Assembly: GCA_951406725.2 (NCBI GenBank)
Contig: OX597827.1
Location: 39,866,001-39,930,000 of the forward strand
Length of the DNA: 64,000 bases
Reading direction: 5' to 3'
Origin: Octopus vulgaris
Taxonomy: Eukaryota
Shown here: in pieces, positions 3,450 through 32,638 of the stretch
Layout: every line of letters starts with the position of its first letter
Numbering within the stretch: the first letter of the stretch is position 1
Notes under the pieces: generated by a model
What the model was told of the DNA's origin: nothing
The model's database searches: none
Seen by the model: only the letters and a program-made list of their open reading frames with translations
Made by a program: the position numbers and the translations under genes

Positions 3450-4450
3450 CGGGAAAGTTTACGAAAATAAACAAAAGACGAAGGCAGGTGGAGTACAAAC
3501 AAACAAATGTATTAGTATGGCGCTCAGGAATAGAAATAGAACAAGTCTTTTACGTTTCGAGCCTACGCTCTTCGACAGAAAGATATGCAGAAAAAAAACA
3601 AGGAGAGAAAAAAATGCGTGTAGGAGCTAACGATCTATCATGGCGTTCTGACTTCAGGTCGAGGTCAGAGGTCAGACGTTAGACGCTAGAGGGACAGTAG
3701 GGGAGATAACAGGGTCAAGTGACCTCCAAAACAAAGGTGGTCCCAACACAAAGGTGCGTGTGTGTATAAGAGAGTATGTATGTGCGTGTGAAAGAGGGCT
3801 GGTGGTCTGGACGTGTGTATGTATGTGTGGGTGTGGAGATATGGGGATGGGTGTGTGGGTGGTGTGTTGTGATGTGATATGTGTATGCATGTGTAGGTGT
3901 AAAGATGTGGGGATGGGTGTGTGGGCGGTGTATGTAATGTGATGTGTAATGTTGTATGGTGTAGTGTGGTGTGATGTTGTGGGGAGGTGGGGGCGAGAGT
4001 GGGAAAGCCCATGTGGGGTGTGGGTTCGGCTGGGGGTTGGGGTAGAGTGGGGGTTGTGGGGAGAGGGAGAGAGGGAGAGAGGGGAGGGGAGAGGGGAGAT
4101 GAGGAGGAGGAGAAGGAGAGGAGGAGAAGGAGGGGAGAGAAGGATAAGGGGGAGGCGGAGAGGAGGAGGGGGAGAGAAGGGGAGTGAGGGAGCAGAGAGA
4201 AAGAGAGAAGGGGAAGAGGGAAGAAGAGAGAAGAAGGGAAGAGAAGAGAAAGAGAGTAGGGGTGAAAAGATGAAGGACTGAAGAGAAGTAGGAGTCGGGG
4301 GGAGGTTAGATGAAAGTGGGGGAGTTGAGCCCAAATGGCGTAAAAGAGCGAAGAGAGAAGATTTATCCCTGTTCACGGCGCAAACGGGAATCCGGATGGC
4401 CTCTGTGCAAGGACAATCCGAACACAGACAGGTGTTGCAAGGAGTGACCG
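3449..4450 (-). mobile_element. Second copy of the same PLE family, tail-to-tail with the first across a (TA)n tract
   Basis: Reverse complement matches roughly 2328-3411 (GIY-YIG tail, low-complexity region, terminal repeat) with substantial divergence. Confidence 0.85.
3547..3582 (-). ncRNA. Minimal type I hammerhead-like motif (variant core CUGUCGA)
   Basis: Minus strand: cttt-CTGTCGA-A-GAGC-GTAG-GCTC-GAAA-CG-TA-aaag. Confidence 0.5.
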
Positions 4451-13216: not shown

Positions 13217-13274
<58 letters not shown>

Positions 13275-13276
<2 letters not shown>

Positions 13277-14260
13277 AGTTAAACGCAGGTGTTATTCAAA
13301 TTCTTTTACTTCCGACACATGTTTCGAAGATATCACTGGTATTATTCCAAAGGAATAAAATGGTGTAAAACAATGTAATCTTCTCTTCAGGGAAATGAAG
13401 AAATAAAACTCGTCAATAAGACATTTTAGCAGAATATGATGGATATGTATAGTGATGAACTGAACGCTATTAAGTAAGCCTATAGAAAGAAGAGGGGTAA
13501 AGGAAAGAAAAAAGTCAGAAATCAAATAAATGAGAAATATGGAACGATGTGTAAATTGAATAAAACCCTAAAGTCTTGGAAAAAGATATATCTAGTGGAA
13601 GTGAAATGTAAGAAGAAAATCAATGTTTAAATTATATATATAATGGTAGATATTACTTATATGAACTAAAGGTGTGTTTCTGCCAATGTTTACATCGGTA
13701 CACATTTAATGGAATAAGATTCCATTCAATCTTATTCTACCTTCCTTTATTAATGGAGACATGAAATCTAGTTGTAATGATATAAACGATATCAATTTTA
13801 ATTTATACGCCAACACCAAACAGAAGAATGGAGATAATCCTTATATTAAGCCCCTTTTTTATTCTAAAGGTAAACTGAAGTCTTTTAAAGATAGTTACAC
13901 TAAAAATAAGGAAACTACTAGCAAAACTATTTGGTTGATTATTCCTAATGGGAGGCAAATTAAATCTAATCTTCCTTTACAGTTTCGGGAAGCTATTATT
14001 AAGAATTTTCCAAAGAATTCTAGGTATTACTCTATTATCAATTCGCACACGGTTAGGATTGGTTTTTCCAACACAAAAAAAATCTCTTTCAAATTATCTC
14101 CTCACATAATAATAGTCTGTTAAATAAGACTCCATTTACTAATACTAACATTAATTTAGCTAATATCATCCATCACCCTAGAAATATTAATAACAAGGTT
14201 ATTGTCTCTGAAGTCAATTCCAACAGAATTGAATTTATATCAAGTAATTCTATGATTAAA
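13275..14260 (+). mobile_element. Second Naiad-like PLE fragment (RT-EN linker) preceded by an inverted terminal repeat
   Basis: ORF 13761-14123 TIWLIIPNGRQIKSNLPLQFREAIIKNFPK..IINSHTVRIGFS resembles the Naiad linker; a minus-strand HHR lies at 13310-13394. Confidence 0.6.
13310..13394 (-). ncRNA. Type I hammerhead ribozyme with intact core and extended stem II
   Basis: Minus strand: ttcc-CTGAAGA-gaagat...(inner ttattcc/ggaataa hairpin)...atcttc-GAAAC-ATGT-GTC-ggaa; GUC cleavage triplet; palindromic ACATGT. Confidence 0.8.
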
Positions 14261-29263: not shown

Positions 29264-30407
29264 CGCATGTGAGTGTGTAACACTCTCAACTCCATTGTTG
29301 GTAAATCATTCTGCATTAGTTGCATAATGTAGCAGGTCTTGTTCACTGCTTACCACATACTCTCACGTTTCTTCTTTCTCTGTTGGTGCACTCATGTATG
29401 TTAATCAGGCCACATTCACCATTACACCTCTTCATGCTCAGCATGTGTACGTTCACCTTAAGGTGGAGGGCACCATGTATTGTTATCGTCTTTCAAGTAG
29501 TGCAATCGTGTTGGTCAATCTCTGCTCATGTTCATTTCAGAACGAGTGCACTATAGTGGACTTCAGCATCAGCCCATATGTTGATGGCAGTCACAAGGTT
29601 CCTTGCATTGAGTTTTGACTCCAAGAACAGTTTAAGGTGCTTCAAATATGAAGTGGTGACCTTGTCTTTCATTTTTCTGTGCAAAATATTGTCCAACTCC
29701 AGGATTCCAAAGTACTTGTACCCACCATTATCTGGGTCTCCCATTTACTCTCCATTTGGTAGTTCTATACCCCTATAATCTGCTTTTTTTCCCATGTTTC
29801 AAAATGAGCAAATCACACTTTGAGGAGCCAAATTCCATTCCTATATCCTTGCTGCATATCTGTACAGCCTCAACCAGCTCTCCATTTTAGACTCAGTTTT
29901 TAAGTTTTAAATCATCCATAAAGAGATGGTTGAGATGAGCTCTTGTCTTCCTCAGTTTGTTGTGTGCATTGACTTTGTATGGAACTACAGGAAAGTGGGA
30001 TCAAGGCTATAACAGATAGCAAAGGTGAACAAGAATCTCCCAGGAAGATACCACTTTTTTATTGTTACTTCAGCTAAGTGCTGGTTGTTACAAAAAAGAT
30101 GTTTTTCAACTAAGCATGCAGTACTTGATCAGTGCATGCATATTCTCAACCACTCCACACATGTCAAGTGTTTCTAGAATCTAAAAATGCAGCAACATGT
30201 CATAAGCCTTTTTAAAGTCTATCCAAGCCATGCACAAGTTTTTTTTTTTTTTTGGTATCGCTTGCAGTTCTTCGTTACAACCTTGCATATCACAAAGTGG
30301 ACCTTGGTGTCCTTGGATCCTTTTGGTCATCCGTTTTTGTTCTACTAGGAGTAGATGGTTTCCCACAAAGAACATATATATATATATACATATATATACA
30401 TATATAT

Positions 30408-31463
30408 AAATAAATATAAGAGAGTGGTCACTATATTGATCACTCTAGCACCAGTTAATCCAAAAGGTTTCAACCACGAAAAATACATGTTTCCCATGAA
30501 AGCCAGTACGACTGTTAGTTCACGCGGACAGGGCAAATAAAAAATAACAAAAATACAGATTATTTTGGGACAATTGTTTCACTATTAATGAATTAAATGT
30601 AATATTACTTACAATAATCCATTTGTAGCTCTTCAGCCAAGACTATCTGGATGAAATCCACTCAATCACACGCCAGATTTTACCATAACGATAAATACGC
30701 GTGCGGTTCAATTGATTACATCGGACGTTATAATTCAAATGCCCCAACCAACAGCGCGCCAAACTCACACGGAAAACAAATACAGCATTTAGAAATAAAT
30801 GCAGCATAATTATAATTAATTAATAAGGGTGAGAGAATTAGATACTAATTTAATAGTATATTTATTCCACACCAAGTGGCCTAGTGCTACGAGAAACCTG
30901 GATTATTATAATATTTTATAACATATTATAATATTTTCACAAAATAAATATAAGAGAGTGGTCACTATATTGATCACTCTAGCACCAGTTAATCAAAAGG
31001 TTTCAACCACGAAAAATACATGTTTCCCATGAAAGCCAGTACGACTGTTAGTTCACGCGGACAGGGCAAATAAAAAATAACAAAAATACAGATTATTTTG
31101 GGACAATTGTTTCGCTATTAATGAATTAAATGTAATATTACTTACAATAATCCATTTGTAGCGAAACAATTGTCCCAAAATAATCTGTATTTTTGTTATT
31201 TTTTATTTGCCCTGTCCGTGTGAACTAACAGTCGTACTGGCTTTCATGGGAAACATGTATTTTTCGTGGTTGAAACCTTTTGGATTAACTGGTGCTAGAG
31301 TGATCAATATAGTGACCACTCTCTTATATTTATTTTGTGAAAATATTATAATATGTTATAAAATATTATAATAATCCAGGTTTCTCGTAGCACTAGGCCA
31401 CTTGGTGTGGAATAAATATACTATTAAATTAGTATCTAATTCTCTCACCCTTATTAATTAATT

Positions 31464-31466
<3 letters not shown>
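30408..31466 (-). mobile_element. ORF-less HHR-bearing tandem and fold-back element (retrozyme-like or PLE terminal-repeat multimer)
   Basis: 534-bp period (30408 vs 30942); inverted arms 30811-31117 and 31159-31466 with two differences; flanked by TA-rich microsatellite on both sides. Confidence 0.8.
30565..30640 (-). ncRNA. Type I hammerhead ribozyme, intact core
   Basis: Minus strand: ttgg-CTGAAGA-gcta..41 nt..tagt-GAAAC-AATT-GTC-ccaa; GUC triplet; palindromic ACAATTGT. Confidence 0.82.
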
Positions 31467-31542
<76 letters not shown>

Positions 31543-31543
<1 letters not shown>

Positions 31544-31932
31544 GAGCAAAGCGCACCCCCACGTCCAATGGACGGTGCTGGGTTGTCAAACCTTTAAGAC
31601 AAATTTTCTCAAAACAACTTGTCCGACCGTCCCATTTTGTGGAATTATTTCAAGCCAGCCGGCTTTTATTGCGCAAACTGCATGTGCATTTTTCTCGCGT
31701 ACACGTAGTATCGATCGCAACAGCTGATATACTTGCACGTACAAATGCACGTTCCCACGGCTTTATCGATCGCATTCTCACCTGGAATTGATTTTTGTAA
31801 TTTTTTCAAGACTTTTACACGCCTTGATACCATCGGTATCTACATGTCAAATTTGAGTGCAATCGGATGGAGGATGCCCGAGATCCTAGAAGACACACGC
31901 ACAGACAGACAGAATAGATTTTATATAATAAA
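31543..31932 (-). mobile_element. Non-autonomous Helitron-like element, family H1
   Basis: Matches 48879-49270 and 50080-50463; subterminal hairpin ccgtccattggacg; 3' end CTCG|T. Confidence 0.75.
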
Positions 31933-32638
31933 TATTCTCTGCAAGGATGCCTGTTAACACTTCCCATAAGAGGTTAAGACAAGCAATGGGCAGGTAATTG
32001 CCAACCCCATTGCCCTTTCACTGATCTTTCATCAACAATGTTGTCTTTCCCTCCACAATCCATTCCAGAACAGACCCACTCTGTATGCAACTGTCTAATT
32101 GCAAAGCAATTCATTTGACATTGACCTAAACCACTTAAGCCAGTAGCCTTGGATTATATTAGGTCCTGCTGCTCTGCAGTCTGGCAGTTTTGATACCTGT
32201 ATAATTACATCTTCCATAGTTGTGTGTTGTTGTTGTTGTTTCTATTGTTGTAAAAAGTACAATGAGGAGTTTTCTTTCTTTCATCAATAATGATATTGTA
32301 AACCTTGAAAAACTGGTATAAAAGTGTTCAAGTAAAAACAAATTGTGTGTGAAAATGTATTTTAGTATTGTTAGTAGTCTTTTTATATCCTGGAATACCT
32401 ATATCTATCATTATAGGATTTCACAGAAGTGGTTGCATATCATTCCCGTTATACAAATTACAAACCAGTCAGGTTCAGGTATTACTGTGTGCTTAAGAAT
32501 TTCTTTTTTCAGCCACTTGCTTTCGGGTTCAGTCCCACTGTGTGTTAATATAGTGTCTTCTTCTGTAGTCTCAAATCAATAAAGGCTTTTGAGTGAATTT
32601 GGCAGAGAGAACCTGAAAGAAGCTAATCAGATGTATGT

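Follow-up and report, generated by a model that had tools for sequence, protein, structure and literature searches.

The window analysed here is a 64,000-nucleotide stretch of contig C14 in the 2.8-Gb genome of Octopus vulgaris. It contains a single head-to-head inverted copy of a 534-nt tandem element with a type I hammerhead, inserted in a (TA)n tract at C14:39896408-39897466 (Table 1). Monomer coordinates refer to a 534-nt reference in RNA sense, whose position 1 lies just after the predicted cleavage site and in which stem II occupies 474-477 and 519-522. In these coordinates, the insertion runs from (TA)n through 161 to 1, one full monomer and 534 to 474, and then turns and continues with 519 to 534 and 1 to 292 before entering (TA)n again; its two arms, 755 nt and 308 nt long, have 4 nt in common. 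The turn lies in a palindrome, of which the 307-nt arm at 30811-31117 is the reverse complement of the 308-nt arm at 31159-31466 apart from two differences, one base absent after 30993 and G/A at 31057. The GCTA and TAGC on either side of its loop make up stem II in a hammerhead of type I (minus strand), and where the first repeat goes on into TCTTCAG the second switches to the reverse complement. The initial annotation had described these arms, their two differences, the 41-nt loop, the turn exactly at stem II and the divergence of the two repeats, and on recheck all were exact. Stem II of the first repeat in the window carries ACTA, a private variant; the family allele, TAGC, occurs in 114 of 116 motif matches (from partly overlapping loci), and both exceptions are this same window copy.

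The insertion sits at the upstream edge of broken open frames on the minus strand (29532-30444), whose motifs seem to resemble those of a non-LTR reverse transcriptase. A 387-nt dispersed repeat is present at 31548-31934 and 48877-49263 in inverted orientation (91% alike), and its first copy adjoins the right TA flank.

Table 1. Features of the inverted insertion, in window coordinates
Feature	Position	Strand	Remarks
Left flank	30374..30407	.	TA-rich microsatellite target
Whole insertion, head-to-head inverted 534-nt hammerhead tandem element	30408..31466	.	From mapping to the monomer
161 arm	30408..31162	-	RNA-sense monomer 474-534, full monomer, 1-161; outer end is the fixed family terminus 161
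Complete type I hammerhead motif	30565..30640	-	From motif scan; predicted cleavage between 30569 and 30568; stem I TTGG/CCAA, CUGAAGA (from 30636 down), stem II GCTA/TAGT (family TAGC), 41-nt stem II loop, GAAA, short palindromic stem III
One full monomer, from one predicted cleavage site to the next	30569..31101	-	533 nt (534 in the L002 reference)
Second hammerhead, truncated	31098..31162	-	Ends at the 5' edge of stem II and lacks the CUGANGA core
GCTA	31114..31117	+	Corresponds in the cDNA to the 3' strand of stem II; the folded-back 3' end is predicted to pair here
Palindrome loop	31118..31158	+	41 nt; cDNA-oriented stem II loop, which contains an imperfect inner helix and runs on from the 161 arm
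TAGC	31159..31162	+	4-nt microhomology at the inversion junction (monomer 474/519)
292 arm	31159..31466	+	RNA-sense monomer 519-534, then 1-292; outer end is the fixed family terminus 292
Right flank	31467..31542	.	TA microsatellite target

The element family and its class

The repeat is a non-coding tandem monomer of 533-535 nt, and a 22-nt motif of it matches exactly at 2,351 sites in the genome; among the first 100 of these matches, arrays reached 14 monomers in a row, spaced at 533-535 nt. A type I motif is found in each monomer and the hammerhead core is conserved across them. This motif was located by a simple stem and core scan, which gave two matches in the 64-kb window; an Rfam search of the window at gathering score gave none, hammerhead included, and the lowest-energy predicted fold of the monomer is without stems I and III. 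Open frames overlapping the insertion are short and AT-rich (77-87 aa from stop to stop), without protein-coding capacity, and an RT and GIY-YIG ORF is absent from the element.

In these respects the family is similar to non-LTR retrozymes (Cervera and de la Pena 2020, PMC7229834; bioRxiv 10.64898/2026.07.22.740005), which in the accessible text are likewise non-coding tandem monomers of low GC with one type I hammerhead each, dispersed in short arrays; its monomer, however, is 534 nt long compared with 150-450 bp in PMC7229834. The main text of that paper contains neither "inverted" nor "target site", and the accessible text describes no fixed ends or inversions. [quoted passage not shown] Unlike PLEs, the element has no ORF, and its tail (161-292) is 131 nt, compared with 30-40 in the published accounts. 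It shows the traits of PLE-mobilised elements, namely the head-to-head inverted 5'-truncated copy and a tail at one end (two fixed termini). Judged by sequence, it fits a non-LTR retrozyme with a PLE-type inverted copy and a one-sided tail, for which self-cleavage is predicted. It is a new member of an already known class, and the feature observed is real.

A second, unrelated type I hammerhead-like motif was detected on the minus strand of the window (13218-13400, core from 13390, 50-nt loop II). It ends close to a TA run (13218-13274) and probably marks the end of a further PLE or retrozyme. At L268 (G000:C1:183005000-183014500), positions 3543 and 3790, an inverted pair belongs to yet another hammerhead family, which has the same stem I and a loop II that is similarly long.

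The two ends of inverted copies

Terminus 292 adjoins a TA run at 893 places in the genome. We examined the first 100 of these, all on C1 and C2, together with 23 of 27 places from a second flank pattern (the other four overlapped), giving 123 loci. A head-to-head inversion was mapped in 80 of them; one further locus, L175, is also inverted, but its mapping failed. Tail-to-tail inversion occurred only inside one complex locus of the 123. Four loci with several junctions and two duplicates of one insertion were set aside, leaving 74 inversions for analysis. The duplicates belong to an inverted insertion that is present three times on C1 with identical flanks (L068, L126 and L128; counted once), and so was copied within a larger duplication or host element.

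These inversions had been located through their 292 end. Where the opposite end could be seen as well (66 cases), it lay at 161 in 64, and never at 292. A second sample was taken from the opposite side, comprising all 57 matches to a 161-end pattern. It contained 36 inversions (7 already in the earlier set), and the far end was 292 in 31 of the 33 with both ends visible (29 clear, and two after reading an over-extended and a complex alignment); the remaining two ended at 273 and 226, and none at 161. Thus, pairs of the type 161/161 or 292/292 were never seen. Non-inverted copies end at the same two sites, and both termini are AT-rich, like the TA target. Of the 74 loci with both ends visible that were scanned for target duplications, three are flanked by one of 13-14 nt; most of the others lie in TA runs, where a duplication cannot be recognised.

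The two arms of an inversion carry nearly the same alleles, being discordant at 6 of 854 polymorphic-site comparisons against about 35% between random monomers. Because the arms share alleles, both probably come from one transcript or source. We also considered arm alleles as a test of one versus two templates, and dropped it since the arms agree in the short- and long-spacer classes alike (5/479 and 1/375 discordant, respectively).

Central junctions and the ribozyme stem

The exact stem II junction was found at only three places in the genome, on C4, C6 and C14, also when one mismatch was allowed, and control matches numbered zero. The three loci have different flanks, arm lengths and alleles (5-9 differences per 300 nt) and therefore represent separate events; recurrence through duplication was ruled out by the different flanks and alleles. 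The junction was not present among the 74 sampled inversions, and its three occurrences amount to about 0.5% of an estimated 575 inversions genome-wide, whereas a hairpin outside the ribozyme (123/143) served as junction six times. The initial annotation gave the ribozyme stem a special role, from which an enrichment of breakpoints at hammerhead stems would be expected. After correction for how often arms pass each position, 18 arm ends fell in the stem II hairpin (474-522) against 15.3 expected (p=0.27), and 31 in the whole hammerhead motif against 22.9 expected, a borderline excess (p=0.05). Two bins, both picked after seeing the data, were raised: 498-534 (23 vs 12.1, p=0.002) and the non-ribozyme bin 41-100 (36 vs 24.3, p=0.01). 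The raised rate on the 3' side of the stem II hairpin would fit pausing of the RT on hairpin entry. Genome-wide, the ribozyme anchor gave 16 short fold-backs, position 92 gave 17 (one of which seems unrelated) and position 432 gave one; of the 16, two lie at stem II and one at its inner helix, the rest being AT-rich micro-palindromes or inserts. Thus, the ribozyme-specific claim fails, and stem II is one of several strong hairpins that are used rather than a dedicated device.

Short spacers between the two arms were more frequent than expected. Spacers of at most 50 nt were found in 32 of the 74 inversions, compared with 14.4 after permuting partners (reached in 0 of 20,000 permutations), and spacers of at most 15 nt in 14 compared with 4.6. 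In the 29 new junctions of the second sample this was replicated only partly: six spacers were at most 15 nt (p=0.006), and nine at most 50 nt, which falls short of significance (p=0.08). The other 42 of the 74 have spacers above 50 nt and unrelated arm lengths, and yet the same 161 and 292 ends. Microhomology of at least 4 nt occurred at 12 of 61 junctions, long-spacer junctions included, against 2.6% expected, and inserted bases at 13 of 74. In three loci (L112, L130 and L084) the inserts repeat or invert nearby element sequence, in a manner that we take to resemble polymerase theta end-joining. Of the 29 short-spacer junctions that carry no inserted bases, 14 show microhomology of 1 nt or none, and some lack a loop; loop-free palindromic joins are seen at L089, L132 and L145. 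Many near-symmetric junctions thus need no snap-back, and the one in the window perhaps needs none either.

For a cDNA ending at TAGC, the predicted fold pairs this end back on GCTA with an MFE of -5.6 kcal/mol, and the predicted pairing of its last base (0.88) ranks fourth among 381 candidate snap-back sites. Compared with shuffled sequences the cDNA fold is weak (z -1.44, 15/200), whereas the stem II hairpin in RNA reaches z -4.9. Junctions at the site of rank 3 recurred six times, at rank 4 (stem II) three times and at rank 7 twice; the corresponding rank test gave p=0.046 with only seven junctions, some of them found through anchored patterns. It is likely that strong cDNA hairpins generally, and not the ribozyme in particular, seed some junctions. 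One further inversion (L205, G000:C19:59372362-59372438) has its turning point within the stem II loop, at the inner helix, where the microhomology measures 9 nt.

Proposed two-ended priming and its alternatives

We favour, with moderate confidence, a mechanism in which both ends of a cut (TA)n target prime reverse transcription and the two cDNAs are joined centrally, in the window by a snap-back on stem II. A PLE reverse transcriptase/endonuclease would cut both strands of the target, and 161 and 292 would be the two RT start sites that bound the PLE "tail", one per target strand. Each target end would probably prime one cDNA, both copied from the same transcript or source. The cDNA from 161 would stop at the 5' edge of stem II, where its 3' TAGC could pair with its own GCTA, held in place by the inner helix, and be extended; the new sense strand would then anneal to the cDNA from 292, and repair would close the gap. 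The assignment of 161 and 292 as start sites on two strands is made by analogy with PMC11167929, because two start sites and extension of both strands were found there.

The initial annotation had proposed that a cDNA snaps back on the ribozyme hairpin and primes itself. The turn at stem II, its recurrence at three loci, the excess of short spacers and the predicted pairing of the 3' end agree with such a step, but as a mechanism it is insufficient in view of the two different fixed ends and the arm lengths. In 17 of 31 short-spacer inversions the looped arm is not long enough to have served as template for its partner. The same holds for three of the six 123/143 hairpin junctions and for the stem II locus on C4, where the looped arm measures 226 nt compared with 307 nt and lacks monomer 162-292, which the other arm contains. 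These copies therefore need a separately primed second cDNA. In the window and on C6, the length of the 161 arm would suffice for it to template all of the 292 arm; even so, the 292 arm of the window ends exactly at 292. Snap-back alone is thus insufficient for most copies, if the ends are priming sites. The idea of self-priming is also not new, as PMC3846280 already proposes it, on an antisense template, for Penelope palindromic junctions.

Several parts of the two-ended reaction have precedents. In vitro, according to the available part of PMC11167929, the PLE protein of Poseidon PAc, a predicted dimer, cuts and extends both strands of an AT-rich target, and two internal start sites bound the tail; hammerhead cleavage is unnecessary for insertion. 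These properties are shared with the scheme above. As a difference, the start sites of Poseidon PAc are stated to be non-homologous to the target, whereas the termini here are AT-rich like the TA tract, and the accessible text gives no account of inverted insertions or of a central joint. R2 elements provide a likeness for the joining step, in that "snap-back" 5' junctions arise when the cDNA 3' end primes on itself before the 5' joint is made (PMC11371274, as available). The tandem and inverted ends of PLEs, the formation of which is named an open problem in PMC8557442, were ascribed in the accessible portions of that paper and PMC3846280 to self-priming on an antisense template and endonuclease resolution; in contrast, the end statistics of the present family speak for priming at each of the two target ends. 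L1 twin priming, reportedly described by Ostertag and Kazazian in 2001, also uses two primers, which lie on opposite target strands, and is said to produce 5' inversions with a variable second primer site and cDNAs that span adjacent stretches. In the octopus family, by contrast, the two putative start sites are constant and the cDNAs are often copies of one and the same stretch.

It is possible, though rather unlikely, that after two-ended priming the cDNA 3' ends anneal directly through the 4-nt TAGC/GCTA, as in end-joining and without a fold-back, stem II being a mere source of microhomology. The excess of microhomology, which extends to long-spacer junctions that cannot be hairpins, is consistent with direct annealing, as are the loop-free joins and the junction inserts. 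The right arm of the window carries the family-majority state at both sites at which it differs from its mirror, and this points in the same direction; however, one of the two lies at a CpG (one CpG site of 6 in the arm) and may represent later decay, and the two differences are ambiguous between the models. Evidence against direct annealing comes from the recurrences. With equal use of the 316 short-range sites that have at least 4 nt, about 0.2-0.8 events are expected per site, the probability of two further stem II events is 0.017 to 0.19, and the looped junctions that recur are those with the best predicted fold-back.

A less probable alternative is an Arkhipova-type model, close to that of the initial annotation, in which a long cDNA (or antisense RNA) self-primes on stem II and an endonuclease later cuts the double-stranded hairpin at 161 and 292 and integrates it. 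It would account for the short-spacer excess, the alleles common to both arms and the same monomer register of both arms in 22 of 31 short-spacer events, and if the ends were cuts rather than starts, the argument from arm lengths would be void. Palindromic junctions have been read as self-priming (PMC3846280, in the part available), and the tail has been ascribed to endonuclease resolution of an intermediate (PMC8557442, likewise). However, the inversions with spacers above 50 nt and unrelated arm lengths end at the same two sites, as do non-inverted copies; the tail ends were mapped in vitro to RT start sites (PMC11167929, available text); and copying back to the primer predicts the same terminus twice, a pattern that did not occur.

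That the copy was inserted first and inverted later, when replication switched templates at the inverted repeat of stem II, is very improbable. AT-rich tandem arrays are susceptible to such switching where they contain local inverted repeats, but it would not place the far end at 292 beside a TA run, and it predicts a symmetry between head-to-head and tail-to-tail inversions that the single complex locus does not provide. A library fold-back chimera or an assembly error is extremely unlikely, as three loci share the junction despite their sequence differences and different flanks, the window arms differ at two sites, and the right arm stops at terminus 292 and enters the TA run, where a chimera would have gone on mirroring the left arm up to the flank; contigs from four runs over 31100-31200 contained no joint and no piece spanning it, but they are short, come from other samples and cover a high-copy palindrome, so that bridging was not expected and they are uninformative.

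Beyond this family, two-ended priming may extend to PLEs in general, although we put this forward more tentatively: the inverted-repeat-plus-tail architecture could be the footprint of priming at both ends by a dimeric RT-endonuclease that starts one cDNA at each of two fixed RNA sites, using opposite strands of the target, and template hairpins, ribozyme helices among them, could seed the bridging snap-backs. The stem II junction alone is a minor case, and the useful result is a countable family-wide rule, in which 161 at one end is paired with 292 at the other, neither site ever occurring at both ends, and the central joint tends to fall at short spacers and predicted cDNA hairpins. A literature search that covered main texts and few subscription papers retrieved in the accessible text neither a mapping of PLE or retrozyme inversion breakpoints to hairpins nor a two-ended rule. 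The end rule links the in vitro result of two start sites and two strands (PMC11167929, as far as available) to inverted genomic structures. It also argues against self-priming as a complete account, and it yields specific junction predictions for the in vitro system. The family is young and has hundreds of inversions; if the two-ended reading is true, it has recorded the reaction at single-base resolution.

An autonomous partner was sought among GIY-YIG loci, of which only the top candidates of 6,136 were scored; blastn found no match to the monomer in 30 of 148 such loci or in 17 longer stretches. Elsewhere in the genome there is a family of 781-aa RT-GIY-YIG ORFs with many open copies, which we take to be Neptune-like by its Cys linker and in which no sequence in common with the monomer was detected. 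The 781-aa ORF is preceded by an overlapping ORF of 400-479 aa (L255:1768-5468, L256, L259, L265 and L266), situated between it and an upstream copy of the 3' end of the same element. Such an extra ORF is unusual for endonuclease-bearing PLEs.
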